A stretch of DNA of 60,963 nucleotides from an uncultured archaeon (GCA_964493385.1 CAZBNW010000005.1:1-60963), one strand, 5' to 3'; shown: positions 4,079-59,297, counted from the first letter of the stretch. Notes: generated from the letters alone by a model not told the origin. Numbers and translations are program-made.

Positions 4079-4543
4079 TCAATCTACATTGACAGAAATT
4101 CCACATTTATTACATCTTTTTGTACCACGGAATAATGGATTGCTACATTCAGGACAATGATATCTCATTTCCTCCCGTTCTACCCATTTTTCGGTACCTA
4201 ATTCTCTCCATTGTGGAATCGCTCTCATTATAACTTTTTTTCCAACAGGGATAGGGAATCTTTTAATATTCTTACATGGCCATTCATCACACTGATAACA
4301 TCCTTCTAATTCTTTGTCTTTTACGCAACTCTTGATAGGGCAAGTTTGGCAGTATCCAAAGACAATTTCCTCAGAAAGACAACCCAGACATTGAATATCA
4401 TCTACAGTTTCTGCGAAAGGTTTATAAACTTTAACCAACCTTTCTTTAAATTTTAAAATATTATCTCTATGAGCAATATATATTGCACATACACCACAAT
4501 ATAATCCACAGGGAGCTAAGAGAGCTTTATTCATATTAGTCAT
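4079..4543 (-). CDS. cysteine-rich protein, DUF3795-like
   Basis: 154 aa. N-terminal APCGLYCGVC and several CxxC pairs (CPECSNP...CNKCG). Family assignment is from memory. Confidence 0.5.
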   Translation of the reverse strand: MTNMNKALLAPCGLYCGVCAIYIAHRDNILKFKERLVKVYKPFAETVDDIQCLGCLSEEIVFGYCQTCPIKSCVKDKELEGCYQCDEWPCKNIKRFPIPVGKKVIMRAIPQWRELGTEKWVEREEMRYHCPECSNPLFRGTKRCNKCGISVNVD

Positions 4544-4560
4544 TTTAGATTCTCATCTTT

Positions 4561-4935
4561 TTATTTTTTGTAATAAATTCCATTATTAAATTCTTTACTT
4601 GAATATTTTCTTTTATTTTTTTCCATTTTTCTTATAAATAATTGACTTAAATCCAAGTCTAAAATATTAATAAGACTTATAAGATAAATAAAAACATCAG
4701 CAATTTCATCAGAAATATCTGTAAGGAGTTTCTCATCATTCCTAATTTCTTCTTTTTTGTAATCTTTAAAAAGTAGCAGTTGAGATAATTCTCCTGCTTC
4801 ACAATTTATAGCTTGGACTAAATTCTTGGGAGTGTGATATTTACTCCAATTACGGTCTTCTACAAATTTTTTCACTTCTTTTTTAAAAAATGAAATTGAT
4901 GTATGAAGATCCTTACAATTATTATTTTCATTCAT
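4561..4935 (-). CDS. MazG-like nucleotide pyrophosphohydrolase (dCTP pyrophosphatase-like)
   Basis: 124 aa. EAGELSQLL and DEIADVFIYL match the MazG EExE/DE metal-binding helices. Confidence 0.7.
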   Translation of the reverse strand: MNENNNCKDLHTSISFFKKEVKKFVEDRNWSKYHTPKNLVQAINCEAGELSQLLLFKDYKKEEIRNDEKLLTDISDEIADVFIYLISLINILDLDLSQLFIRKMEKNKRKYSSKEFNNGIYYKK

Positions 4936-4977
4936 AATAAATCAAGTGAAACGGATTAAGTGAAATATATGTATTAT

Positions 4978-5877
4978 TCACTTAAGTTTTCTAATAAATT
5001 CCATTATTAAATCATTAATTATGTCTTTTCTCTGAGCAGGAGCAAAATGCCCAGCCATATCAATAATATTTAATACAGAATTTGGAATCATTCTATGTAA
5101 TTCTTCTGACATCTGCTCTGGAACAAAATTATCAAGCCTTCCCCCAATTATTAGAGTAGGGCAACTAATACCTGATGGGTCATATTCCTTTATTTCATGT
5201 ATCATTCGAAAAATTTGGTCTTCAATTTGCATATATAATTGATCTTTAGTTAAATTTAATCCTGCTAATGAATCAGATAAAGCAGTTATTATATAAGGGA
5301 CTGTTTTATCTAATATTTTTTCAACAGAATTAGCTAAAACTTCTAAAAAATTCATTCGGATAAAATAGGGAAGCAAATTGTAAAAAATGTTTCTGACAAC
5401 ATTATCAATCATGATATATCCTGAATTTAAAAGGATAAGAAATTTGATATCATCAGGGTGCTTCATTGCAAATAGCTGACCAATCATGCCACCAACAAGA
5501 GAATGTCCTATTATTCCAAATTTTTCATTTATTCCTAAATACTTTAGAAGATCTTCTAAATCTCGAATGATATCATATCTCAGATTTTTAGAAAGATTTA
5601 ATTCTGTAGGGTGATCACTCCTCCCATGCCCTAGTGCGTCAAAAGCTATGATTTTATAATTTTCTTTCAATATTTTTATTTGAGCTTTGAAAAAAGAAGC
5701 AGATGATGCGAAACCATGAAGTAAAATAATGGTACAATCCTTTGAATGTGGGTTAATATTCTCATAATATAGATTGTAACCCTCTTGGTTCTTGAAATAA
5801 GGCATGTGAGATAGATACCTATAATATTCTATAATTTCTGAAATAAAAGATTCCAAAAATACTTTTCTAAATTTCAA
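4978..5877 (-). CDS. alpha/beta-fold hydrolase
   Basis: 299 aa. HGF oxyanion motif (ILLHGFASS), nucleophile elbow GHSLVGG, C-terminal AGHF histidine. Confidence 0.8.
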   Translation of the reverse strand: MKFRKVFLESFISEIIEYYRYLSHMPYFKNQEGYNLYYENINPHSKDCTIILLHGFASSASFFKAQIKILKENYKIIAFDALGHGRSDHPTELNLSKNLRYDIIRDLEDLLKYLGINEKFGIIGHSLVGGMIGQLFAMKHPDDIKFLILLNSGYIMIDNVVRNIFYNLLPYFIRMNFLEVLANSVEKILDKTVPYIITALSDSLAGLNLTKDQLYMQIEDQIFRMIHEIKEYDPSGISCPTLIIGGRLDNFVPEQMSEELHRMIPNSVLNIIDMAGHFAPAQRKDIINDLIMEFIRKLK

Positions 5878-8769: not shown

Positions 8770-10239
8770 TCATTCTTTCCATAGACTCTCGTAAATTTTC
8801 CCTGGATTTAAAATAGTATTAGGATCAAGCAATTGTTTTATTTTTTTTAAAGAATCAAAAGCTAATCCCCATTCTACTGACATCCATTTTGCTCTATTGA
8901 TTCCAATACCGTGATGGTGTCCAATTGATCCACCACAATCTTCTACCGTTTTAATAACTGTATTCCATACGTCTTGATAAAATTCAAGATCGGTTTTTTC
9001 TCTTGGAGGTATTCCCGCAAAAGAAAAATAAAATCCTACTCCATTAGAATAGAAATGGGAAACATGTGCTGTTATAAATAATAACCCTTTTACTTTATTT
9101 GCTGCATCTAGTACAGAGTGATACATTTCTGCCGCTTTATCCCATAAAAATCCAATTTCGATGGTATCAATAACCACCCCAATTGTTGGCCCTGATGATA
9201 AATCAGTTACGTTAAATCTAGTTTCAAACCAATATTCAACTGGGTTTTTTCCACAATTAATACCACTGTTCTCTTCACATACTTCTTTAGTAATTTCTTC
9301 TTCAAGATTGACCAGTCTTTTAATCCCTTCACAGACAAATACGACCATAACTTTATCCTTAGCCTTATCTATATGACCAAAGTGTCTAACTGTTTCAACT
9401 GCATCGTAAATCCGGATAACCGCAGGATATATTTGTTGTCTTAATATCTGTCTTGTAGCTTCTAAAGAATCCTCGATAGTAGGAAAAACATAAGAAATAA
9501 GTGTTCTCGATTCAGGATAAGGCCAAATTTTTAGTGTGACTTTTGTTATAATCCCCAGTGTACCTCCACCTCCAATAAACAGCTTCTCAAATTGAGGACC
9601 GGTTGATGTTCGAGCAATAGTCTTAAATTTTAGGATATCTCCTTGTGGTAAAATTACTTCCATACCCATTACCATATCCTCAATTTTACCATATTTAGTT
9701 GAGAATTGTCCTGCGGACCTATGAGCAATCCATCCGCCTACAGAAGAATAATTGAGAGATTGAGGGATATGTCCATGAGTATAACCTTGTGCATTTAAAT
9801 ATCGTTCTAAATTCATTCCATTTATTCCAGATTCAACTGTAACTGTCAGATCCTTATCATTTATATTAAGAATTTTATTAAATTTTTTCATATCAATAAT
9901 GATTCCCCCATAAACTGGTATAGCGCCCCCAACAACTCCAGATCCTTCTCCATAAGGTATTACTGGAATTTTCTCTTGATTAACAAACTTTAAAATTTCT
10001 GTTAGTTGTTCTACAGTTTCTGGCCATGTTATAAAATCCGGCAATCCCGCAATCTTTCCTTGGAGTGTCCAATTGAATCCAATAAGCGTTGTATCTTTAG
10101 TATAAGCTAATATATCAATCTCTTTTGTTGAAACATTCTCAGTTCCTACAATTTCTCTTAGTTTAGCTTCTACTTTTTGTTTATCTTTAATTTCACAGCG
10201 ATTTTCTTTATAGATTAATTCAAATTCTTTTAAGTCCAT
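8770..10239 (-). CDS. FAD-linked oxidase (GlcD / D-lactate dehydrogenase family)
   Basis: 489 aa. FAD_binding_4-type motif PVIPYGEGSGVVGGAIP and C-terminal HHHGIG, typical of the family. Confidence 0.85.
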   Translation of the reverse strand: MDLKEFELIYKENRCEIKDKQKVEAKLREIVGTENVSTKEIDILAYTKDTTLIGFNWTLQGKIAGLPDFITWPETVEQLTEILKFVNQEKIPVIPYGEGSGVVGGAIPVYGGIIIDMKKFNKILNINDKDLTVTVESGINGMNLERYLNAQGYTHGHIPQSLNYSSVGGWIAHRSAGQFSTKYGKIEDMVMGMEVILPQGDILKFKTIARTSTGPQFEKLFIGGGGTLGIITKVTLKIWPYPESRTLISYVFPTIEDSLEATRQILRQQIYPAVIRIYDAVETVRHFGHIDKAKDKVMVVFVCEGIKRLVNLEEEITKEVCEENSGINCGKNPVEYWFETRFNVTDLSSGPTIGVVIDTIEIGFLWDKAAEMYHSVLDAANKVKGLLFITAHVSHFYSNGVGFYFSFAGIPPREKTDLEFYQDVWNTVIKTVEDCGGSIGHHHGIGINRAKWMSVEWGLAFDSLKKIKQLLDPNTILNPGKIYESLWKE

Positions 10240-10363
10240 TAATAATCCCCATACATTATAATATAATTATCATACTAAAATGATTAGAATTAATTTAAAA
10301 TTTTGATTTATCAAACGAATTTATTATTACTCAAAACCCAACAATAAAAAAAGTAAATTTCAT

Positions 10364-11842
10364 CTAGTAAATAGTTTCTCCAGTTATTCGATTCACTTTT
10401 AAATGTCTGAATCTTGCTTTTTCTCTAATAATTTCTTTGCTAGTTGAGATTGTGTCAACAATCTCTTCCGGAAATAAATATTTTGCTAAATGAATTATCA
10501 TTTCCTTCGTTTCAATACAATTAAATAACTTTAGGCTTTCAACGGAGTAAAATAATTCACTTACTAAATCATAGTTCGTATCTACTGAAAAATCAAGAAG
10601 TTCTAAATTCCTATAAATTCGAGTTACAATATTTTTTAAGAGATCATACTCTTTTAACTTGGCAAGAGTATTGCTCATATAATGACTAAATAATACATAA
10701 TATGTAGCTTCTGATGAAACAAAACCATCTCGGAATTGTTTTATTCCTTCTGGAGTTATTCTTAACTCAATTTCTTCTAAGATTGCTGATATTTCACGTT
10801 CTAGTTTTTTAACTCCTAATTGGCGATACATTTTTAAAATTACTACTAATTGAGAAGTTTCTAGATTTTTCAAATAATTAGATTCAAAAAATTTTGGATC
10901 TGCTTTAATCAAGTTATTCACATGTTCAAAATCTAGCCACAGTTTCATCAACTCAGTTGATTTAATAAAATAATATGCTCCATCTGTAGCTTCAATAAGG
11001 GGTGATTCATATCTATCTGTAGCTTCTTCGTATAAATCTAGCAAAAAACTAACAATTTTTTTCTCTTCAAGATTAATATTCAGATGTTTAGCTAGATAAA
11101 TTCCACAAAAATAAAGATCAGGATTCTTTAGTGTGACCATTGGAACATCGATCAGCCACTCATCAATATTTTCTTCTAAATATAGTTTTATGTGAGAAAA
11201 ATCAAACATATTCTGAAGATGGAAGAAGTGAATGATTCTATGAATTAAATATAATAATTGAAGCTTAAATTGAGGTTCTACTAAATCTTCTAGACTTTCA
11301 ATTTTTTCTCGATTAGTCATGAATTTATCAATTATTTTTTCTTGGATTTGAACATATTTTCTTAAATTTTCTTTCTTTTCTGGAGAATTTTCGATCAAAT
11401 TTTTCAAATTTCGAAGTTCCATAATGAATTCAATATTTAATAAACCCTCAGATTTTAATTTTAGCATTAAAGGCACAACTTGAATATCAACAAGATAATC
11501 GACTATTTTTTCTAGAAAAATTTCATATATTATTGGAGCGACTTTTTTTTCAAAAAGTTCTATTAGTGAAGTTATTTCTTCTCGATCCTTTTCGTGTATT
11601 TCTAAAAAAGGGTCTAAAAATTTACTTTCGATTTCTGATTTTTCAAATCCCAATTCTTCAAAGAATTGCGTAAGATAAAAAACTAGATTTTCAAGCTTTT
11701 GATCTATATTAGTCTTATTAATTGGAGAATTTCCGAGAGTTTTATTAATATTATCATGGAAAAACTGATCTAAATTATTATAAAACAAGTCAATTTCTTT
11801 AAAATATAAATCTAAAATGTTAAATAATCCTTGAAAAATCAT
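10364..11842 (-). CDS. hypothetical all-helical protein
   Basis: 492-aa uninterrupted ORF with the same codon style as its neighbours. No motif recognised. Confidence 0.55.
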   Translation of the reverse strand: MIFQGLFNILDLYFKEIDLFYNNLDQFFHDNINKTLGNSPINKTNIDQKLENLVFYLTQFFEELGFEKSEIESKFLDPFLEIHEKDREEITSLIELFEKKVAPIIYEIFLEKIVDYLVDIQVVPLMLKLKSEGLLNIEFIMELRNLKNLIENSPEKKENLRKYVQIQEKIIDKFMTNREKIESLEDLVEPQFKLQLLYLIHRIIHFFHLQNMFDFSHIKLYLEENIDEWLIDVPMVTLKNPDLYFCGIYLAKHLNINLEEKKIVSFLLDLYEEATDRYESPLIEATDGAYYFIKSTELMKLWLDFEHVNNLIKADPKFFESNYLKNLETSQLVVILKMYRQLGVKKLEREISAILEEIELRITPEGIKQFRDGFVSSEATYYVLFSHYMSNTLAKLKEYDLLKNIVTRIYRNLELLDFSVDTNYDLVSELFYSVESLKLFNCIETKEMIIHLAKYLFPEEIVDTISTSKEIIREKARFRHLKVNRITGETIY

Positions 11843-30228: not shown

Positions 30229-30759
30229 TTGAATCAATCTCTTTCATTAACTCTTTTGAAAGGTAAAGAAAAATTTTTGAATATAAAAAATAGATTAATT
30301 AAAGAATTAAAAAGAAGTTTATCTGAATTGGTAGAAGAAAAAATAGAAAAAAATTACTCAAAGTATATAGAATTCTTAATTAAAAATATTCGAGAGATTA
30401 AGAAAACCATAGATAAGCTACAAGATATAGAATTAATTTTTAACTCCAAAGATTATAATTATCTATTGAAAAATTATGATAAAATTCAAGGCTTATTCAA
30501 AAATCCTGTTGAAATTAATAAAGATAGAATTGATTTTATTGGAGGTTTTAAAATCTCATTGGTTGGAGGGACAATCTCTTATGATTACACCATAGATAAT
30601 TTAATAAATATTAAATCTTCATTTATTCAGATGGAAATTTCTAAGATTGTTAATGATTCAGAAATTAAGCAAATCGAAAATAATTTTAATAATTTTATTC
30701 AAAATCAAAAAACAAAAATAACAGAATATCTCACACAGTATGATCAAATCCAATTCTAA
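30229..30759 (+). CDS. atpE: A-type ATP synthase subunit E; ORF-track TTG start is almost certainly too far downstream (frame is open from 30025)
   Basis: C-terminal globular part with IGGFKISLVGGTISYDYTIDNL matches the AtpE tail. The N-terminal stalk helix is encoded upstream in the same frame. Confidence 0.75.
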   Translation: MNQSLSLTLLKGKEKFLNIKNRLIKELKRSLSELVEEKIEKNYSKYIEFLIKNIREIKKTIDKLQDIELIFNSKDYNYLLKNYDKIQGLFKNPVEINKDRIDFIGGFKISLVGGTISYDYTIDNLINIKSSFIQMEISKIVNDSEIKQIENNFNNFIQNQKTKITEYLTQYDQIQF

Positions 30760-32584
30760 AATCAATATCCAATATGGGCACATTTCAGCAATTATTGGTT
30801 CTTTAATCAAAATAAAAGGATTAGAAAGTTCTATTCGGCTCCGCGATTTAATTAAAGTATCTAAGTATAATATCTTAGGAGAAGTGATTCATATTTATTC
30901 TGATCATATTGTAGCCCAGTGTTTTGAAAATACAGTGAATTTGAGAATTAATGATAAAGTAATAAGCCTAAATGAACCTCTTTCTATGGAATTAGGACCC
31001 GGATTATTAGGAAATACTTTTGATGGGATCCAAAGACCTTTACAAAACGCATTTGAACTTTTTAAGGAAGGAGGATTACATAGAGGATTGGAGATACCTT
31101 CTTTATCAAGAACAAAAAAATGGCATTTTTTTCCACGAACAAAGATTAATGATGAATTGAAAAGTGGAGATATTGTAGGAATAGTCCAAGAAACTCCTTT
31201 AATAGAACATAAAATAATGATTCCCCCAAATGTCAATGGAAAATTATCATTTATCGCATCTGAGGATGATTATACAATTACTGACGAAGTTTTTAGATTG
31301 ATAATAGATAACAAAGAGAAATCTTTTACCATGTTACAAAAATGGCCTGTAAATAAAGCTAGACCCTTTAAAGAGAGAGATCAACCAAAAGAACCTTTGA
31401 TTACGGGTATTAGAATTATAGATTTATTGTTCCCAATAAGTAAAGGAGGCACAATTGGTGTTCCAGGAGGTTTTGGAACCGGAAAAACAGTGATCCAACA
31501 ATCTTTAGCTAAATGGTGCAATGCGGATGTAATTGTCTTTGTAGGATGTGGTGAAAGAGGGAATGAAATAGCAGACGTTTTAAAACAATTTTCTGAGCTA
31601 ATTGATCCTAATAGTGAACGTCCTTTACTAGAACGGATCATATTAATTGCTAATACCTCTAATATGCCGGTATCGGCACGTGAAGCGAGTATCTTTTCGG
31701 GGGTCACTATAGCAGAATATTATCGGGATATGGGATATGATGTTGCTGTTCTTGCTGATAGCACGTCAAGATGGGCAGAATCTTTACGAGAAATTTCTGG
31801 ATTATTAGAAGAAATGCCTGCTGAAGAAGGTTATCCTGCATATTTACCATCGAAACTTTCTAGCTTTTATGAGCGAGCTGGTTTTGTTAAATTATTCGGG
31901 AAAGAAGAATCTGGAACGGAGCGATTCGGATCTTTAACTATAATAGGTTCAATATCTCCTCCCGCTGGAGATTTTAGTGAACCTGTGACTGCAACCACAA
32001 AAAATTTCGTACAAGGAATTTGGTCGTTAGACGCTGCTTTAGCATATTCAAAGCATTATCCTGCGATCAATTGGCTAAACTCTTATTCAAATTATCCGGA
32101 TTATCTCTCTAGATGGTGGTATGAAAGAGATATAGATTGGTCAGAAATAGATCTCGACTGGTTTGATTGTCGTAAGCAAGTAAATGATATCTTATCTCAA
32201 GATAATGAGTTGAAGTATGTTACACAATTAATTGGAGAAGAGAATTTACCTGAAGAACAACAATTAATTATATTTATAGCGAAACTAATTAAGGAAGGTT
32301 TTTTAATTCAGAACGCATTTGATGAGATTGATAATTATACAAGTACTAGAAAACTGCTGGGAATGATTAAGCTCATTCTTTTAATTTATAAAGAAGGCAT
32401 AGAGCTCATGAAACAGGGTTTCTACATAGAAGACATAAAAACTCTCAGTACAATAAATGAAGTCTTGAGAATAAGCCGAGCTGTACATAATGATAAATTC
32501 CATAAGGTAGAAGCTTTGAAAAAAAAATTGCTTAATGATATAGAATACTTAAAATTAACAACTAAAGTGTTAAAAAAAAAATGA
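30740..32584 (+). CDS. atpA: A-type ATP synthase catalytic subunit A
   Basis: 614 aa. Walker [18 protein letters not shown] catalytic loop, [10 protein letters not shown] Walker B region. Confidence 0.95.
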
Positions 32585-37444: not shown

Positions 37445-39271
37445 ATGAAGTCTATAAAAAATTCTGACAAAGAATCTAAAAATGGTTATATTTCGGCAAT
37501 CACAGGATCACTGATTAAAATAAAAGGAATAGAAAATAATGTTCACCTTTATGATTTAATTAAAATTTCAAAATATAATATCTTAGGTGAAGTAATACAG
37601 ATTTATACAGACCATGTGATTGTTCAATGTTTCGAAAACACAATAAAAGTGAAGTTAAATGATGAAGTCATTGGTTTAAATGAAACGTTATCAATGGAGT
37701 TAGCTCCAGGTCTCCTTTCAAATGTTTTTGATGGAATACAGAGACCTTTAGAAATAGTTTTTAACAATGCTAGTTCCGGAGAGCTAGACCGAGGTGTAAA
37801 ATTTCCTCCTTTGTCAAGATCTAAAAAATGGCATTTTACACCGTTAAGAACAATTGATGAAGCTGTAGAAAGTGGAGATATAATAGGCATTGTTCAAGAA
37901 ACTCAATTTTTAGAGCATAAAATAATGGTTCCTCCAAATGTCACTGGAAAATTATCTTTTATCACAAGAGAGGGTGATTACACAATTATAGATGAGATAT
38001 ATAGAATACATATAGATGGGGAAGATAAATCCTTTACAATGCTACAAAAGTGGCCAATTACGAAAAGTCGTCCTTATAAAAAGAAAGAAAATCCAAAAGA
38101 ACCTCTAATTACTGGAATTCGAATGATAGATTTATTATTTCCACTCGCAAAGGGGGGAACTACTGCTATTCCTGGAGGTTTTGGAACAGGAAAAACTGTA
38201 ATTCAACACTCACTAGCTAAGTGGTGTAACGCTGATGTGATTGTATATATTGGTTGCGGTGAACCTGGAAATGAAATTGCCAATGTTTTGAAACAATTTT
38301 CAGAAACAAAAAATCCTAAAAGCGGGTCTCCTTTATTAGAAAGGGTAGTTCTTATAGCAAATACCTCTAATATGTCGGTTTCAGCTCGAGAAGCAAGTCT
38401 ATTCTCTGGAGTTACAATAGCAGAATACTATCGTGATATGGGATATGATGTTGCTGTTCTTGCAGATAGTACATCAAGGTGGGCAGAGTCATTACGAGAA
38501 ATCTCTGGATTATTGGAAGAAATGCCAGCAGAAGAAGGGTATCCCGCCTACTTGCCTTCTAAACTATCTAGCTTTTATGAAAGAGCAGGTGTAGTTAAAA
38601 CTTTAGGAAAAGACCATCTTGGAAATGAAAGAATTGGTACTTTAACGATTGTTGGAACTCTTTCTCCTCCCGCAGGGGATTTCAGTGAACCTGTCACTGC
38701 CACAACAAAGCGGTTAGTTCAAGTCTTTTGGGCATTAGATCCTAGTCTAGCATATTTAAAACATTATCCCGCTATCAATTGGCTTAACTCCTATTCCAAT
38801 TATCCTACGCCCCTTGCAGATTGGTGGTATGAAAGAGATATTGATTGGGTTGAGATAGATATTGATTGGTTAGAATGCCGAAAACAAGTAAATGACATAC
38901 TTTCTGAAGAGCAAGATTTAAAACATGTTATTCAATTAATAGGGGAAAAAAACTTGCCACAAGATTCTCAGCTAATCCTCTTCATAGCAAGAATAGTTAG
39001 GAACGGTTTTTTAATCCAAAGCGCATTTGATGATATCGATAACTTTACTGATGTTAAAAAAATGTTAGGCATCATTAAACTCATTCTCTTAATTTATAAA
39101 GAAGGTAAAAACTTTCTAAATAGAGGATTACTAATTGAATATCTAATAGATCCTGAGCTTATAACCTCAATATTAAGAATAAATCAAACTATACGAAATA
39201 GCGATTTTCAACAAATAGAAAACTTAAAAAATAAGCTTCTACAAACGTTTAGGAGTCTAACATTAGAATAA
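37445..39271 (+). CDS. second, diverged A-type ATP synthase A-subunit paralog (GER loop changed to GEP)
   Basis: 608 aa, roughly 70% identical by eye to atpA at 30740. Walker [10 protein letters not shown] is intact. GCGEPGNE replaces GCGERGNE (CCT at 38264-38266 versus AGA at 31556-31558). Confidence 0.9.
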
Positions 39272-39294
39272 AATTCTTAACTTTTATCTTTCTT

Positions 39295-39364
39295 TTAAGG
39301 CTTGAACCACTCAAAAAAATAATAGCTACAAGTAAGAGGATTTGCGATAACAAACTTTTTCCTC
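39295..39364 (-). pseudogene. orphan 3'-terminal fragment of tRNA-splicing endonuclease gene (last ~22 codons plus stop)
   Basis: Minus-strand translation RKKFVIANPLTCSYYFFEWFKP-TAA is identical in amino acids to the C-terminus of endA at 42647-42715. There is no upstream coding continuation. Confidence 0.75.
39297..39364. repeat. direct repeat copy 1 (68 bp; att-like)
   Basis: 39297-39345 is identical (49/49) to 42649-42697. The next 19 bp match 15/19. Confidence 0.9.
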
Positions 39365-39505
39365 CTATTACATAATGTTCGAAAAGTGCACCTTAAAGTT
39401 TTAAAATCTCTTTGAATAGTAATATATTAAAGAAATATTTTTATTGACAATTATAATAAAAAAGTATATAGCATAATTCTATGTTTAAGAGGTGAAATTT
39501 ACAAC

Positions 39506-39757
39506 TTGTATAAAGAATTAACTCAATTTTATAAAATTGGAAAAGAGTTAGGATTAAAAAGAAGTGAAATTAACCGAACATTTATATTTTCAGGAAATCG
39601 TTCTTTGTTATTTAAGTTTTTATTAATATTTGTTTTAGCTTTAATAGCTGTCGTTGTAGTTGTTGTTATAGTGGGTTGGGTTGGATCCAGATCTGTTTAT
39701 GCAAGCGGAACCTTCTATTCATCTGTTAAGTTAAATGATTTTAAGAATAAAAAATGA
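39506..39757 (+). CDS. small single-pass membrane peptide, paralog A (candidate precursor/substrate peptide)
   Basis: 83 aa. TTG start 10 nt after AGAGGTGA. Shares YKIGKELGL, EINR, a TM helix and a GT-x-YS-x-VK-x-x-DF tail with the ORF at 42366. Stop overlaps the next gene's start (ATGA). Confidence 0.6.
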   Translation: MYKELTQFYKIGKELGLKRSEINRTFIFSGNRSLLFKFLLIFVLALIAVVVVVVIVGWVGSRSVYASGTFYSSVKLNDFKNKK

Positions 39758-41088
39758 AGTTAAACGTTGGTTCTGGAAGAAGATATGACCCAGATTATTG
39801 CAATATTGATTTATATGAAGACATATTAGCAGATCAACAAATGTCTGCGATAAACCTATCATTTCTCGATAACTCTTGTGAAGAGGTTAAAGCAATTCAG
39901 TTAATTGAACATATAGGTTTTTTCAAATCTCTCTATGTATTAAGCGAATTTTTTAGAGTCTTACAGTTTAATGGAGTTCTAATTATAGAAACACCTGACA
40001 TTGAAAAGGCTTTTCAATCCTATTTAAATGGAAACTATGAACAGCAAAAGGAAATTTTAGGATGGATATTTGGTATTCCCCATGAAGGTCTTCAGCATAA
40101 GTTATGCTATCCCTCAAAATTGTTAGCGGAAATGCTTAGAAAAATAGGATTTATTGATATAAAAGAAAGAAAATATTATAATACAGAATCAATACCCACT
40201 TTAAGAATTGAATGTAAAAAGCCTTCAAAAGAGAATTTCTTACAAGTTATTACACATATTCGAAAACAAATGTTATTAGAGAACATAGTAGATTTTAAAA
40301 ACTCATTTCTAGCAAAAGAGCAGGAGGATTTATTAACGTTTATTTTATTAAAGTTAAAAGAATTTGAAGGAAAAAAAGAAAAAAAATTTATCTTTGAAAT
40401 TATTAAGACTATTCTAATAAGATTTCCTCAAGTAGCTAAAATTTTTCTTAAAGCGATTGAGGATATTAATTATCTTTCAAGTTTTGAGATAAAATACATT
40501 TATGAAATAATTGAATATATAATAAAATACAACCTTCCTAATATTTTATTTAATTCTCTTAAAAAACTGCCAACAATTCCAGGAACTCAAATGTTTGCAT
40601 TTTCATCAATAGAAGCATTTGGTGAAAGAATAATAGAGAAATTAATGTTTTTTAAAAATGAAAAGCAGCAACAATTAACTCGTTTAAAGAAACTATCAAC
40701 AACTAATAAACCGAATGAGTTATTCTTTTTCTCTTCCGAGATGGTTCAAAGAAAATCTCAAGAATATTTCTATCAAGGAATAAAGGAATTTTACAATCAA
40801 AATTATGACATTGCCAAAGAGAAATTGTTAAGCTCAATTCAATTATTTAGGGATGATTTAACTTATTACTGGAATTTAGCAAAAGTGTTCGTTAAATTGA
40901 ATTTAAAATCAAATGCACTAAAAACTTATAGGAGAACATTAAGATTGCTAAGAATTAGTAAAATAAAGAATAAAAAGATGATTAAAAAGGATATCACTTC
41001 AGAAATAAGTTGCGTAAAGAAGTCAACAGAATCATTAGCGAACTTTAATCCCATCATAACTCTCGATAAGTACTATTCCGTAAATTAA
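39754..41088 (+). CDS. class I SAM-dependent methyltransferase with C-terminal helical-repeat (TPR-like) domain
   Basis: 444 aa. N-terminal LNVGSG...NIDL...AIQLIEHI...NGVLIIETPD matches the Methyltransf_11/23-type fold. The C-terminal approximately 270 aa are helical, with a TPR-like YYWNLAKVFVKLNLKSNALKTYRRTL. Confidence 0.7.
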   Translation: MKLNVGSGRRYDPDYCNIDLYEDILADQQMSAINLSFLDNSCEEVKAIQLIEHIGFFKSLYVLSEFFRVLQFNGVLIIETPDIEKAFQSYLNGNYEQQKEILGWIFGIPHEGLQHKLCYPSKLLAEMLRKIGFIDIKERKYYNTESIPTLRIECKKPSKENFLQVITHIRKQMLLENIVDFKNSFLAKEQEDLLTFILLKLKEFEGKKEKKFIFEIIKTILIRFPQVAKIFLKAIEDINYLSSFEIKYIYEIIEYIIKYNLPNILFNSLKKLPTIPGTQMFAFSSIEAFGERIIEKLMFFKNEKQQQLTRLKKLSTTNKPNELFFFSSEMVQRKSQEYFYQGIKEFYNQNYDIAKEKLLSSIQLFRDDLTYYWNLAKVFVKLNLKSNALKTYRRTLRLLRISKIKNKKMIKKDITSEISCVKKSTESLANFNPIITLDKYYSVN

Positions 41089-41205
41089 AAAGCAATTATA
41101 TTATTTTCCATAACGATTATATCATGAAATATTCAATTTTAATAACAAAAGTTTTAAAAGAAATTTAATCAATTTATATTTCAGAAAAAGAATCAAATAA
41201 TTACA

Positions 41206-42330
41206 ATGCCAAGTTTAATATCACTTTTAACCCGTAGAATAAAAAATTCTTGTGCAGTTTGGGAAATTACTTTAAAATGTAATAGCAAATGCATTCATTG
41301 TGGGTCCAGAGCGGGTAGCGCGCGTTCAGATGAGTTAAATACTGAGGAAGCGTTAAAGTTAGTAAAAGAGTTCCATTCATGTGGCTATAAAGGTGTCGCA
41401 TTAATGGGTGGAGAACCTCTAATTAGAGAAGACTGGTTTGAAATTGCGAAAGAAGTTAAGAAATATAAAATGGACTTATCAATCGTTACTAACGGATTAA
41501 ATGTTGTTAACCATATTCAAAAATTGAAAAAGTTAGATGTAGATTGCGTATCTTTAAGCTTAGACGGGGGGATTCCAGAAACACATGATTATCTTAGAGG
41601 AATTAAAGGAGCATATGATAAAACTATAAATGCTATGAAGACATTAAAAAAAGAAAAACTTCCTGTCTCAATAATTACAGCTATTAGTAAAAGAAACTTA
41701 AATGAAGTAGATTTAATTAAAAATTTGATTTTAGATCATAATGTTTCTTGGCAAATTCAATTAGCAGTCCCTATTGGACGTTTTCCTAAAGATTTAACTA
41801 TTTCAAGAGAAGAATATTATGTATTAGCAATGTTTATTTCAATCAGTGTTAAAAAATACTCCTATCGAAGACTCCCTGTAATAGGAGCACATTGCATTGG
41901 TCACTTTTCAAGGTTCATCCCAAATTTAGGGTTAGCGCCCTGGGTAGGATGTCAAGCAGGATATTCGGTGTTAGGTATTCAAAGCAATGGAAATATAAAA
42001 GGATGTTTAACTCTTCCAGATGAATTTATCGAAGGAAATGTAAGAACTCAAAGTTTAAAGGAAATTGTATCAAATCCTCACGCTTTTGCATATAATCGAA
42101 GCTTTAAAAAAGAGAATCTAATTGGTTATTGCAGAAATTGTGATATGGCAAACGAATGTAGAGGAGGATGTCTAGGTACTGGTTATGCAATTAATTCCCA
42201 TGATTCCCCCTATTGCTTACGAGCAATAGAAAATACGCGCTTTAATTCACAAATATTTAATATTAAAGGAAAAATGGACTCAATTTTATCAAAATATAAA
42301 AATCTTTATTCTAAAATTCTAAATATTTAA
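41206..42330 (+). CDS. radical SAM enzyme with SPASM domain (peptide-maturase-like)
   Basis: 374 aa. CNSKCIHC (CxxxCxxC, nt 41278-41301), GGEPL, then SPASM cysteines GCQAG...NGNIKGC...CRNCDMANECRGGC. Confidence 0.9.
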   Translation: MPSLISLLTRRIKNSCAVWEITLKCNSKCIHCGSRAGSARSDELNTEEALKLVKEFHSCGYKGVALMGGEPLIREDWFEIAKEVKKYKMDLSIVTNGLNVVNHIQKLKKLDVDCVSLSLDGGIPETHDYLRGIKGAYDKTINAMKTLKKEKLPVSIITAISKRNLNEVDLIKNLILDHNVSWQIQLAVPIGRFPKDLTISREEYYVLAMFISISVKKYSYRRLPVIGAHCIGHFSRFIPNLGLAPWVGCQAGYSVLGIQSNGNIKGCLTLPDEFIEGNVRTQSLKEIVSNPHAFAYNRSFKKENLIGYCRNCDMANECRGGCLGTGYAINSHDSPYCLRAIENTRFNSQIFNIKGKMDSILSKYKNLYSKILNI

Positions 42331-42365
42331 AATTTTAAATCAAAAATTTGGAGGAAATTTGTTAA

Positions 42366-42626
42366 ATGATCAGCAATATACTAAATATATATAAAATTGG
42401 AAAGGAACTAGGATTAAACAAAAAAGAGATAAATAGATTAGTATTTTTTAAAAATCACAAATATAGTCTATTACTTATAATCCTTACAATCATTACCTTC
42501 ACTTTTTTAGCATTAATTATAGCATTTTCTTATGTTCAAATTGATAGCAATACTTATCCGATAGGTACAAAATATTCAACAGTTAAAATAAAAGATTTTC
42601 GATTAAAAAGGAATAAAAGAGTATAA
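42366..42626 (+). CDS. small single-pass membrane peptide, paralog B (candidate precursor/substrate peptide)
   Basis: 86 aa. ATG preceded by GGAGG. Same N-terminal motif, TM helix and tail as the ORF at 39506. Confidence 0.6.
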   Translation: MISNILNIYKIGKELGLNKKEINRLVFFKNHKYSLLLIILTIITFTFLALIIAFSYVQIDSNTYPIGTKYSTVKIKDFRLKRNKRV

Positions 42627-42646
42627 TAATACTGTGAATTTACTTT

Positions 42647-43243
42647 TCAAGGCTTGAACCACTCAAAAAAATAATAGCTACAAGTAAGAGGATTTGCTAT
42701 TACGAATTTTTTCCTCACAGATGTAGCTAAACGACCGGCTCTTACCATATCGATAGCCGTAATTTCAGAATCATGAGGTAGAACATGAACCATAAAAAGG
42801 GAATGTTCGAGTCCGGGACCTTTTTTATAAACCACGAAATCTGCTCCAAATTTAAGCCCAGGTCTCGGAATGTACCCTTTCTTCCTTAAATCTTTATATA
42901 TAATATATTTTTCTTCAAATTTATGATGAATTTTTTTTGCTATCCCATGAAATTTCTTAGGATTTAAATTTATGTTCTCTTTTACGTCAAAAATAGTTAT
43001 ATCATCCCTTTCCAATAAGTAATAAGCTTCTATTAAAGATAATTCGCTTGGTTTGGAAAAATATTCTAAGCGTGGTTTACTAATTCCAAGTGGACTCCCG
43101 AAAAAGTTTTTTTTTACATAAAGGTAAGATGCATATAATGGATTGAAAACAATTACTCGATTATTTATAAATTTCGTAGGAATTTTATCCGGGACTTCGA
43201 TATCGTCAAGAGAGATTTGCTCATCCTTTACTTGATTCATCAT
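42647..43243 (-). CDS. endA: tRNA-splicing (intron) endonuclease
   Basis: 198 aa. YKDLRKKGYIPRPGLKFGADFVVYKKGP...H...RLATSVRKK matches the EndA catalytic domain (Tyr/His/Lys triad context). Confidence 0.85.
   Translation of the reverse strand: MMNQVKDEQISLDDIEVPDKIPTKFINNRVIVFNPLYASYLYVKKNFFGSPLGISKPRLEYFSKPSELSLIEAYYLLERDDITIFDVKENINLNPKKFHGIAKKIHHKFEEKYIIYKDLRKKGYIPRPGLKFGADFVVYKKGPGLEHSLFMVHVLPHDSEITAIDMVRAGRLATSVRKKFVIANPLTCSYYFFEWFKP
42649..42716. repeat. direct repeat copy 2 (68 bp; forms the real 3' end of endA)
   Basis: See copy 1. The two copies are offset by 3352 bp. Confidence 0.9.
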
Positions 43244-48672: not shown

Positions 48673-49671
48673 TTAATCTTTTATACCATCCTCAGTAATA
48701 GAAAAGATTGCATCACTCTCGGGAATATGAGGAGCATCTACAACTTTTGCTATTCTTTGTTCTCCTTTTCCTTTTCTCAAGAAAATTCTAATTGTGGCGC
48801 CATGTGCGACAACGTGTCCTCCTGTATGTATCAAAGGATTACCATAAAATACATCTGGTCTAGCAGATACTTGGTTTGTAAAAACGACTGCCAACTCATC
48901 ATAGGTCTCGGTTAATCTTAATAAATCATGGATATGAGAATTAATAATTTGTTGGCGCGATGCTAGAGTCCCTCTTCCGATATATTCACTGCGAAAGTGT
49001 CCTATAAGGGAATCTACTACAATTAATTTAATATTTTTTTCTTTTATAATTTTTGGAGCTTCTTTAACTAATAAGATTTGATGATTACTGTTGTAAGCCC
49101 TTCCAACAGTAATATTTTTTAATACTATATTATGATCCAAATCTTTTGCAACAGCCATCTGTATTAATCTTTCAGGTCTAAAGGTTCCTTCAGTATCAAT
49201 GTATAACGCTCCACCTTCAAGGCCCCCTACTTCATAAGATAATTGTGCATTAACACACAACTGATGAGCTAATTGTGTTTTTCCGGTTCGATATTCTCCA
49301 AAAAGTTCTGTAACTGCTCCGGGTTCAATTCCCCCAATCAATAAATCATCTAAATTGTTACTACCTGTAGTTAATTTGTTTAAAGTCTTTCTTTTTTCCC
49401 ATATTTTATCAGCAGACTTGAATCCCATTTTTTCTATGTCTTGGGCGACCTTGATTATTTTTTCAGCCGTTTTTTCACCTATACCTGCTTCATCCATTAA
49501 TTTTTTCAATGGATACATAGCAAGAGTTCTAATAGACAAAATTCCTGCATCTATTAATTTTTTTACAGTTGCGTCACCGACACCCGGTAAATCTTTCAAA
49601 CTATAAGACGTTTCTGATTTAGGTACTTCTTTACCACGAGTATCATCAGATTCTGCTTTTTTTTTTGCCAT
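48673..49671 (-). CDS. radA: DNA repair and recombination protein RadA
   Basis: 332 aa. N-terminal helix-hairpin-helix (LPGVGDATVKKL), Walker A GEYRTGKTQ, Walker B LIVVDS. Confidence 0.95.
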   Translation of the reverse strand: MAKKKAESDDTRGKEVPKSETSYSLKDLPGVGDATVKKLIDAGILSIRTLAMYPLKKLMDEAGIGEKTAEKIIKVAQDIEKMGFKSADKIWEKRKTLNKLTTGSNNLDDLLIGGIEPGAVTELFGEYRTGKTQLAHQLCVNAQLSYEVGGLEGGALYIDTEGTFRPERLIQMAVAKDLDHNIVLKNITVGRAYNSNHQILLVKEAPKIIKEKNIKLIVVDSLIGHFRSEYIGRGTLASRQQIINSHIHDLLRLTETYDELAVVFTNQVSARPDVFYGNPLIHTGGHVVAHGATIRIFLRKGKGEQRIAKVVDAPHIPESDAIFSITEDGIKD

Positions 49672-58026: not shown

Positions 58027-59297
58027 TTATTTGATTGTTTCGGGAACTCGTAAGAAAAATGGAATTCCAATCCATAAAATAATCCCCGTTATAAAAAATA
58101 CCCATAAAATTCCAAAATTATCTGCTAAATAACCTGCAATGAGAACACCTGGTACTTTTGCTATTGCGTTACCTATGTTTATAATTCCCAAAAATCTTCC
58201 TCGTGATTCTTCAGGAAGTAAATCTAGTGTCCATGCATCTGTTGCTAACCATAATCCAATGTTAAAAGGCATCATTATCCCAAAACCTAATAATAAAAAT
58301 TGATAACTGGATCCCAAAAATGTTATTATAAAACAACCTATTGGAGAAATTATTAAACTTATTAAAGCTACTTTTTTTCTACCGATTGTATCGACGTATT
58401 TTCCTAGAAGAAATATACCTAATCCAATAGCAATTAAAATAAATGGTAGGAATATTAAAATTTCTAAAAAACTTAATGAAATGTCTTGAAGTAATATCAA
58501 TAAAAATGGAGTAAAAGCATATTGACTCATAATTAAAAATAGCATCGCAACAAATAAGCGTAGAAAATCTTTATGTTGGATCATTTCTTTACGATTTAAC
58601 AAATTCTTAAGATCATGAAGCCAGTTTCTTGGAGGTGTATTTACCTTAGGTTCTTTCACTAATATACTTACAAGAATCCCTACAATGACTAATAATAAAG
58701 CTCCCCCTCCAATAAAAATGGAGTGGACTTCTCTAGAAAATGTTTCTGTCCCTTCAGGTAAAAGAATTATTGCAGGAATCCAAACTGTCATGGAACCCAT
58801 ATTTGTAGCTATAAACAAGATTGAATTAATTCTACCTCTTTTTTTTTTGGAATTAAATCCCCAATTAAAGATTTATTTGTAACATGAAACATATTTGAAG
58901 TAATTGCTAATAAAAACCCTCCAATAACTAATAAAAGTAAAAAATAGGTTGTTGAAATATAGAAAATCATTAGCCCTGCCGTTAATACCATACCTATCAA
59001 AATTATGGGAATACGCCGTCCAAGTTTTGTACGTAAATTATCAGAAATTGCTCCCCATATTAAATAAAAAATTGTACCAAATATTCCCATTAATGCAACC
59101 ATAGTGGAAACACCAAAATAACTCACATTTGCTATAACACTAGCGAATGAAGAAAACCATTGCCCTTCGATTTCTGAATAAAGAGTTGTACCAAAAGCTA
59201 AAAAACATAACGCTAAAATCCAAGATTTACGAATTCTTAACTTTTTCTTTTTTTTTGAAGTTTTATCTAAAGAATCAAATTCCAAATTATTTTCCAT
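58027..59297 (-). pseudogene. MFS transporter split by a frameshift in a 10-nt homopolymer
   Basis: ORFs 58809-59297 and 58027-58818 are consecutive halves of one MFS protein. The frames join across the T10 run at 58839-58848 (A10 on the coding strand). One extra A would read ...PKKKRGRINSILFIATNMG..., restoring the MFS R-G-R loop. Confidence 0.7.

Follow-up and report, generated by a model that had tools for sequence, protein, structure and literature searches.

Features of the endA locus

We analysed a 60,963-nt stretch of DNA from an uncultured archaeon (GCA_964493385.1, CAZBNW010000005.1:1-60963; hereafter the window), in which the 3′ end of endA, the gene for the tRNA-splicing endonuclease, is present twice. 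The two copies bracket a 3.3-kb insert that holds four plus-strand genes: pep83, p444, a radical S-adenosylmethionine (rSAM)/SPASM gene and pep86. Copy 2 is the genuine 3′ end of the intact 198-aa endA, as the initial annotation had proposed and as the Pfam and TIGR00324 matches bear out. Copy 1, the orphan, begins 23 nt past the stop of atpA2. Related sequences are numbered in the style L001-L123. L120 (ERZ27251113) and L123 (Ga0114921) serve as proxies for the resident sequence and L092 (ERZ27251135) for the donor; L091 is Ga0114922. The features are as follows.

37445..39271, plus strand: atpA2, second V/A-type ATPase A-subunit paralogue, left flank (Pfam ATP-synt_ab and related domains, TIGR01043)
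39272..39294: native atpA2/endA convergent spacer, 23 nt, resident type (21/23 identical to L120 and 22/23 to L123, of equal length)
39295..39364, minus strand: orphan endA 3′ fragment (repeat copy 1, attL-like), made up of the stop TAA, a 49-nt core (39297-39345) and a 19-nt arm (39346-39364)
39365..39505, plus strand: conserved upstream block, left end of the imported DNA (aligns with the pep83-upstream sequence of L010, L013, L023, L043, L092, L098 and L118)
39506..39757, plus strand: pep83, 83-aa single-pass membrane peptide, candidate precursor or substrate (paralogue of pep86)
39754..41088, plus strand: p444, 444 aa, N-terminal class I S-adenosylmethionine (SAM)-methyltransferase fold and C-terminal helical (TPR-like) repeats (from homologues and a structure model)
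41206..42330, plus strand: rSAM/SPASM enzyme, peptide-maturase-like (Pfam Radical_SAM, PF04055, 6e-26; SPASM, PF13186, 5e-9)
42366..42626, plus strand: pep86, second membrane peptide paralogue, 86 aa (by paralogy to pep83)
42627..42646: donor-type spacer from the cassette to the endA stop (15/20 identical to the L092 spacer; similar in L010, L042 and the L023 orphan)
42647..43243, minus strand: endA, tRNA-splicing endonuclease, 198 aa (Pfam tRNA_int_endo, TIGR00324)
42647-42716, minus strand: repeat copy 2 (attR-like), the last 70 nt of endA, with the stop TGA, the 49-nt core and a resident-type arm

The repeat pair at the endA 3′ end

Direct comparison of window positions gave 49/49 identity between 39297-39345 and 42649-42697. 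This core occurs in two copies in the 61-kb window, with 0 expected from 100 dinucleotide-preserving shuffles. In a repeat search the match reached 72 nt, with 93% identity, between 39293-39364 and 42645-42716 (spacing 3352). The mismatches in the extension, at 39346, 39349, 39352 and 39355, all fall on third codon positions and are synonymous on the minus strand (copy 1/copy 2: AAG/AAA, TTT/TTC, GTT/GTA and ATC/ATA), and the stop codon is TAA in copy 1 and TGA in copy 2. The exact repeat, the four synonymous mismatches and the difference in stops were thus re-found as first described.

The mismatches are unevenly distributed, with 0/49 in the centre and 5/23 at the edges (Fisher p = 0.0024). 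When the 49-nt core was compared with ~85 other Lokiarchaeal endA genes, none had fewer than 2 mismatches and most had 7-15; plain conservation therefore fails to explain the identity of the two copies. The pattern fits two alleles that would have diverged under purifying selection before the event, rather than decay after a local duplication. The earlier suggestion that the orphan derives from a once-functional endA allele is borne out by the synonymous third-position differences, which are kept clear of the core. The orphan itself is a dead, unexpressed fragment, because in-frame stops (ATG TAA TAG, minus strand) directly precede it on its own strand.

Across separate assemblies of four samples, 39200-42800 was recovered with 0 mismatches. 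Moreover, a Logan unitig (L008, k=31) corresponds to window positions 39316-42678; it starts in copy 1, spans the junction of orphan and cassette and ends in copy 2. Given the four identical assemblies and this unitig, the assembly artefact that the initial annotation named as a refutation is unlikely.

The host and insert-free sites in its relatives

A search with the endA protein gave 80 genome loci, all from metagenome-assembled genomes (MAGs) of Lokiarchaeia/Promethearchaeota, at 74-94% identity, and the host is a Lokiarchaeon (Promethearchaeota). In 21 of these 80 loci endA and atpA2 converge across 26-46 bp, and in 17 further loci they do so across 51-136 bp with nothing between. Insert-free alleles, present in at least 38 genomes, are the commonest state among the relatives. 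Such alleles had been named as a check on the initial annotation, and the arrangement seen in the window is not shared by all relatives; the proposal of a real insertion into the endA 3′ end, with a replacement end, stands.

The closest relatives of the left flank, L120 and L123, were found by an atpA2 homologue search. They come from different datasets, are 99.7% identical to each other, and have an atpA2 that is 90.6% identical to that of the window at the nucleotide level. Their empty site consists of a 23-nt spacer followed by an intact endA with a TAA stop. By sequence comparison, the atpA2 of the window belongs to this "empty-site" (E-type) lineage. An exact 33-mer of the core had no match among JGI metagenome contigs, so no strain-level empty site or circle was found there. 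In L009, L018-L020 and L029, where endA and atpA2 are 200-265 bp apart, the gap held no cassette remnants.

Hybrid make-up of the two repeats

Each repeat could be divided into parts of different affinity. The 19-nt arm of the orphan (AAG TTT GTT ATC) has 1 mismatch to L092 and 7 to L120/L123 and is of donor type, while its stop TAA and the adjoining spacer (21-22/23) match L120/L123 and are of resident type. The arm of copy 2 (AAA TTC GTA ATA) agrees with L120/L123 at 4/4 diagnostic sites, the rare C included, and has 5 mismatches to L092; it is of resident type, and the 20-nt spacer that leads from copy 2 towards pep86 (15/20 identical to L092) is of donor type. The 49-nt core, in both copies, has 2 mismatches to L120 and 11 to L092, and is of resident type. 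The arm combination A-C-A-A, shared by copy 2 and L120/L123, was found in none of ~77 other lineages. Further into endA, from -300 to -73, L120 is the best match among ~95 loci, by a small margin (87.7%, with the next at 86.4%).

The two repeats are thus reciprocal hybrids. The orphan joins a donor-type arm to the resident-type stop and spacer, and the live endA end joins a resident-type body to a donor-type spacer. In addition, both sides of the insert look resident. Together, the reciprocal hybrids and the resident flanks argue for a Campbell-type single reciprocal crossover of the resident endA tail with a molecule whose donor endA arm was already linked covalently to the left end of the cassette.

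Content of the insert

The upstream block at 39365..39505 is probably the cassette promoter, because an AT-rich TTATAATAA element is present in it. Homology of this block to the relatives starts at ~39367, at TATTACATAATGTTCG. The first and last genes of the insert are related to each other (pep83 and pep86, 34% identity, E = 2e-11), and the consensus of the peptide family is M..IIQLYKIGKELGLsKKEIN-TM-NTYPtGTkYSTVKIKDF..KK. pep83 had no match in Pfam, NCBIfam or PHROG. pep86 is the most divergent part of the cassette; its identity to peptides from other lineages is only 49-55%. Between 2 and 5 paralogous peptide genes are present in every related cluster.

For p444, 139 homologues were found, and wherever a source is named it is a MAG of Lokiarchaeal type or a metagenome from sediment. 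Pfam Methyltransf_11/23 and TPR domains are present in several of them. The AlphaFold2 model of p444 has a predicted local distance difference test score (pLDDT) of 88, and its best Foldseek matches in the PDB are SAM-dependent methyltransferases over ~190 residues. The rSAM enzyme has the cluster motif CNSKCIHC (CxxxCxxC) at residues 25-32, and its nearest solved structures are SkfB and PqqE. Its top NCBIfam matches are nif11-class and GDL-motif peptide maturases, all far under the curated cut-offs; the best of them, TIGR04103, scored 226 bits against a cut-off of 725, which does not place the enzyme in a characterised maturase family. From its gene content, we regard the insert as an uncharacterised candidate cassette for peptide modification, similar to those for RiPPs, peptides that ribosomes synthesise and that are then modified post-translationally.

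No integrase, resolvase or transposase was detected by Pfam scan of the four insert open reading frames (ORFs) and 48 further ORFs, the latter covering nearly every non-overlapped window ORF of at least 100 aa. This confirms the initial observation that no integrase, transposase or replication gene lies between the repeats, and extends it to the 61-kb window. Inverted repeats were not found at the ends of the insert. An insertion sequence (IS) or transposon is not indicated either: terminal inverted repeats and a transposase are lacking, and the duplication, 70 nt of diverged sequence, is not of the target-site kind. The whole insert had no match among PLSDB plasmids and INPHARED phages, p444 had one weak partial match (31%) among viral contigs (IMG/VR), and the degenerate endA-tail pattern YYFFEWFKP had none in viral contigs. 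In the literature, neither endA as an integration target nor this cassette was found reported.

The cassette in other lineages and its horizontal origin

The cassette also lies between atpA2 and endA in L010, L013, L023, L042, L043, the L091-L099 lineage, L098 and L118. None of these other cassette-bearing loci has a copy of the endA tail next to atpA2 at E <= 1e-3. Where their left junction is on the contig, it consists of ~70-90 bp of unrelated spacer and then the conserved block upstream of pep83, and the homology of the window to all other cassettes begins at ~39367, directly past the end of the orphan.

Identity to the nearest relatives changes along the locus. In sliding nucleotide comparison with L092, identity is 0.70-0.80 in atpI and atpA2, moves from ~0.65-0.75 to 0.88-0.90 near the left breakpoint, and rises to 0.88-0.97 from ~39360 to ~41980. 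Towards the end of the rSAM gene (its 3′ part) and across pep86 it falls to 0.6-0.8, and in endA and Memo it is ~0.8-0.9. The left breakpoint of the imported tract coincides with the orphan boundary. At the protein level, p444 and the rSAM enzyme are 91% and 89% identical to those of L091, compared with 75% for atpA2 and 72% for PfkB. In L010/L013, the sole examined pair that is uniformly high across the locus, atpA2 is 91% and p444 85% identical. The cassettes of the window and of L091/L098/L118 have, on these identities, a much more recent common ancestor than their backbones. The comparison shows horizontal acquisition of the cassette, because nucleotide identity to the nearest cassette relative jumps from ~0.75 to ~0.92 exactly at the end of the orphan.

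Within the cassette, ~450 nt at 40783-41230, which run from the 3′ end of p444 across the intergenic region into the first part of the rSAM gene, are 93-97% identical to L023, with the rest of the cassette at 73-88%. This pattern indicates further recombination tracts inside the cassette. L120, L123, L091 and L092 have neighbouring accession numbers in two submission series; going by accession numbers only, the same sediments probably harbour both the empty-site lineage and the closest lineage with the cassette.

More distantly related cassettes (46-52% identity) lie in a different chromosomal context and run rSAM, 3-5 peptides, methyltransferase, a gene order unlike that of the endA-linked cassette. 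For example, the cluster family is present in L100-L111 (e.g. L101 3907-8338) as an rSAM/SPASM gene, a methyltransferase-TPR gene and 2-5 genes for ~85-aa bitopic peptides. The motifs of these peptides are strongly conserved (N-terminal YKIGKELGL, C-terminal NTYPxGTxYSTVKIKDF), and some versions of the cluster carry an extra ~250-aa multi-pass membrane protein. The family was found in Lokiarchaeal-type sequences only and matches no curated family. The cassette is best described, on present comparisons, as a chromosomal accessory cluster of Lokiarchaeia and not the cargo of a recognisable mobile element, because it is chromosomal elsewhere and nothing related was found on viral contigs, phages or plasmids.

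Proposed mechanism

We see about an even chance that a Campbell-type insertion of a circularised chromosomal fragment, by host homologous recombination, left the direct repeat of 68-72 nt as its scar. The donor would have been a cassette-bearing Lokiarchaeon, in which the two ends of a contiguous chromosomal segment became linked head to tail, either in a circle or in a tandem copy. This segment would comprise the promoter block, pep83, the methyltransferase-TPR gene, the rSAM gene, pep86, the spacer and the last 70 nt of endA, and the circle or tandem junction is predicted as ...TTTTTCCTCC|TATTACAT. Once transferred, the molecule would have recombined, at the 3′ end of endA, with the chromosome of a lineage whose atpA2/endA junction was compact and "empty", the crossover falling within the 49 nt over which the two copies now agree exactly. 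The expected outcome is an intact endA, with a resident body and a donor stop and spacer, and a dead 70-nt endA tail beside atpA2. The host homologous-recombination machinery would act on the short identical stretch, a dedicated integrase being less likely. The repeat, the empty sites, the horizontal origin of the cassette and the hybrid structure of the repeats are shown; that the intermediate was circular or tandem, which way the transfer went and which enzyme acted are what we infer rather than observe. On this reading, the insert would be a horizontally exchanged chromosomal RiPP-like cassette and not a self-mobile element.

Several findings favour host recombination. There is no recombinase gene in the insert or the 61-kb window, and the event is unique, the orphan next to atpA2 being present in no other cassette-bearing lineage. 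Perfect identity is limited to the stretch where the crossover must lie. Finally, the locus recombines widely and the endA alleles are themselves mosaics.

Other observations weigh against the proposal. The assignment of the hybrids uses four linked synonymous sites and two short spacers, and the proxies for resident and donor differ from the true parents by 8-10%. No sampled lineage is the true donor, and the right-hand 0.65 kb (the 3′ end of the rSAM gene and pep86) is close to no known lineage. Since the core is resident-like in both copies, the donor core must already have matched the resident one or have been converted. At the head-to-tail junction the sole candidate microhomology, TTTCCT, is doubtful, because 11 nt do not fit. 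Moreover, the second orphan endA tail in L023 (described below), which starts from -82 where that of the window starts from -70, could hint at a preferred site and hence a site-specific enzyme.

The endA/atpA2 junction as a variable locus

In other lineages the gap between endA and atpA2 contains Usp-like (~150 aa), fructose-bisphosphatase (FBPase)-like (~335 aa) or hydrolase genes, and in L032 a 433-aa gene of TnpB/IS605 OrfB type (4284-5585). To judge from these contents, the gap is a variable islet. The identities of its two flanks, atpA2 (the copy nearest endA) and Memo, correlate with a Spearman coefficient of 0.27 over 1953 pairs, of which 35 are strongly discordant. The atpA2 identities fall into classes of ~63-65% and 70-82% and those of Memo into ~59-65% and 80-93%, and these are combined almost freely across L009-L088. 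endA is unusually conserved, with a median of 81% amino acid identity compared with 62-65% for its neighbours, and chimeric metagenome contigs at the conserved endA may contribute to the discordance of the flanks.

L023 has a second, independent orphan endA 3′ fragment of ~82 nt (11754-11836; endA coding sequence 10001-10597). It is located between endA and the cassette, behind a 1156-bp segment with a 158-aa ORFan (region 10598-11836), and homologues of this ORFan lie directly downstream of endA in L112-L117. In comparison with the near-identical L042, identity in the L023 endA drops from 98.6% to ~75% at ~200 nt ahead of the stop, and the foreign tract starts ~180-290 nt before the stop, well past the repeat. 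The L023 orphan is better explained by a homology-anchored replacement, because the foreign tract exceeds the repeat and the 1156-bp segment is syntenic with endA-downstream genes of another Lokiarchaeal lineage.

Alternative explanations

The same topology could result from a crossover made by a site-specific recombinase acting in trans, encoded elsewhere in the genome or on a helper element. The cassette with its 19-nt endA-like arm would then be a mobilisable integrase-less element and the endA 3′ end its attB. Hybrid repeats with a perfect 49-nt core and imperfect arms do resemble attL/attR, a conserved gene is targeted at its 3′ end and has its function restored, L023 has its second orphan tail 12 nt off in register, and the endA/atpA2 gap carries varied cargo across lineages (TnpB, Usp-like, FBPase-like). 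However, no such recombinase is encoded in the insert or the surrounding 61 kb, the orphan accompanies the cassette in this lineage only (~8 other cassette-bearing lineages are without it), the endA-tail sequence was not found on viral contigs, and known Asgard integrative elements go to tRNA genes (PMC8813620). The L023 orphan is also unlike an att event, as its foreign tract extends ~100-200 nt past the repeat into the body of endA and its "insert" shares synteny with what ordinarily lies downstream of endA in other Lokiarchaeia. We therefore regard a trans-acting recombinase as unlikely, if worth keeping in mind. A broader proposal, that the Lokiarchaeal endA 3′ end is a true attachment site for integrase-less cassettes, inserted and excised by a recombinase encoded elsewhere in a satellite- or integron-like system, seems doubtful; under it, the window (orphan at -70) and L023 (other cargo, orphan at -82) may be two captures at one site. 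The attL/attR-type integration put forward in the initial annotation is thus retained for the reciprocal hybrid repeats and the Campbell topology, and given up as regards a dedicated integrative element, for which neither a mobility gene nor a viral or plasmid copy was found.

A homology-facilitated illegitimate recombination was favoured at first for the window, on account of L023 and the discordance of the flanks. Here a linear foreign fragment would have been anchored by homology in endA or the ATPase operon, and an illegitimate join would have fixed its other end 70 nt into the resident endA, leaving a purely resident orphan and a purely foreign copy 2. The locus is indeed a recombination patchwork with weakly correlated flanks (Spearman 0.27), L023 and L042 switch sharply from 98.6% to ~75% within endA beside an orphan, and TTTCCT is a possible microhomology at the junction. 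When its prediction was tested (a retained fragment wholly of the recipient and a new copy wholly of the donor), the arms were found to be swapped: a resident orphan arm and a foreign copy-2 arm were expected, and the reverse holds at 4/4 diagnostic sites with two resident proxies. The 0/49 and 5/23 mismatch pattern is also left unexplained. This explanation was dropped for the window once L120/L123 revealed the swapped arms, and we now consider it improbable. A local event without transfer, in which a lineage that had the cassette all along either duplicated part of endA or lost a second copy of the gene by decay, would suit a repeat that is short and an orphan that is untranslatable. It is very improbable, given that the mismatches are all synonymous and clustered at the edges (p ~0.002-0.003) and so arose under selection before the event, that identity to other lineages shifts abruptly at the orphan boundary, and that the empty site of L120/L123 is the orthologue of the atpA2-orphan junction. 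An assembly artefact, with a chimera formed at some conserved k-mer, would agree with contig L007, which ends inside copy 2, and with the Logan unitig, whose breaks at the two copies are what a repeat exceeding k would cause in any case. It is hardly credible in view of the identical four-sample assemblies, the k=31 unitig that crosses the orphan/cassette junction, and a 49-nt repeat that is shorter than typical reads.

Other genes of the window

The remaining content of the window is housekeeping: purine synthesis, sugar metabolism, an A-type ATPase operon and RadA (48673-49671). tRNA and Rfam scans of the window found nothing. The ATPase operon has two A-subunit paralogues, atpA1 (30740-32584, 614 aa) and atpA2 (37445-39271, 608 aa), which are ~70% identical; between them lie atpB, atpD, atpI and the gene for a 145-aa protein with a C-terminal CxxC...CxxC motif. 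This layout is common to most related loci. About 12 (e.g. L048, L067, L077, L084 and L088) are without atpA2, and in these the 145-aa gene comes directly after endA. Within atpA2, 38825-38866 is an imperfect tandem duplication of 21 nt (7 codons; WYERDID / WVEIDID). Finally, a major facilitator superfamily (MFS) transporter at 58027-59297 appears split over two overlapping minus-strand ORFs of 263 aa and 162 aa, which may reflect a frameshift or a pseudogene.

Comparison with known systems

Like integrative elements at the 3′ ends of tRNA or protein genes (e.g. those of the pNOB8 type with a tyrosine recombinase), the window has the target 3′ end duplicated as direct repeats, a restored target gene, relatives with empty sites and repeats that are reciprocal hybrids. 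Unlike them, its insert has no integrase, excisionase, replication or virion gene. Heimdallarchaeal aloposons and HeimV1 integrate at tRNA genes (PMC8813620). In contrast to elements of that kind, the target here is endA, and the cargo is a normal chromosomal resident of the same locus elsewhere. No extrachromosomal form is known, and neither the insert nor the endA tail had a match in IMG/VR, among INPHARED phages or among PLSDB plasmids. The insert lacks the defining feature of an att-type element, a recombinase of its own.

Integrase-less elements of the IMEX type (integrative mobile elements exploiting Xer) borrow a host recombinase (Xer/dif). The window resembles them in its small insert without a recombinase of its own and in the short direct repeats on both sides; it differs in that the site is not a dif-like inverted-repeat site and no sign of Xer use was found.

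The cargo has features of rSAM/SPASM RiPP clusters (SkfB, PqqE, nif11-class and GDL-motif maturases), namely a CxxxCxxC rSAM enzyme with a SPASM domain, small paralogous peptide genes and a tailoring methyltransferase. Its peptides are ~85-aa bitopic membrane proteins conserved at both ends rather than short leader-core peptides, the cassette has no protease or exporter gene, and the family is limited to Lokiarchaeal-type sequences. It is an uncharacterised candidate peptide-modification system, found here in Lokiarchaeal-type sequences only.

Homology-facilitated illegitimate recombination has been described for natural transformation in Acinetobacter and Streptococcus. The locus is similar in having foreign DNA beside a conserved anchor gene and many breakpoints, but the orphan of the window is a hybrid, and that model fits the separate L023 event better.

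Campbell-type ("ends-in") integration is the insertion of circular or gapped DNA by homologous recombination, as in gene targeting with insertion vectors. As there, a single crossover in a short shared segment duplicates the segment around the insert, the segment being identical and the outer arms parental. Unlike insertion-vector targeting, the event in the window would be natural and between diverged lineages, with ~49 nt of identity and an intermediate that is deduced. Both parents of a horizontal gene transfer event in uncultured Asgard archaea can be approximated here from public data, as the empty-site and the cassette-bearing lineages, and the crossover can be placed within 49 nt. The case shows that Lokiarchaeal lineages exchange accessory cassettes at a conserved gene's boundary without recognisable mobile-element machinery, and the endA/atpA2 junction divides chromosomal segments of differing histories. 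What it documents is the exchange of genes among Asgard archaea and not a novel type of mobile element, and we judge it an evenly balanced proposition that the insertion is a well-resolved natural Asgard example of the acquisition of a cassette by single-crossover recombination at the end of a conserved gene.

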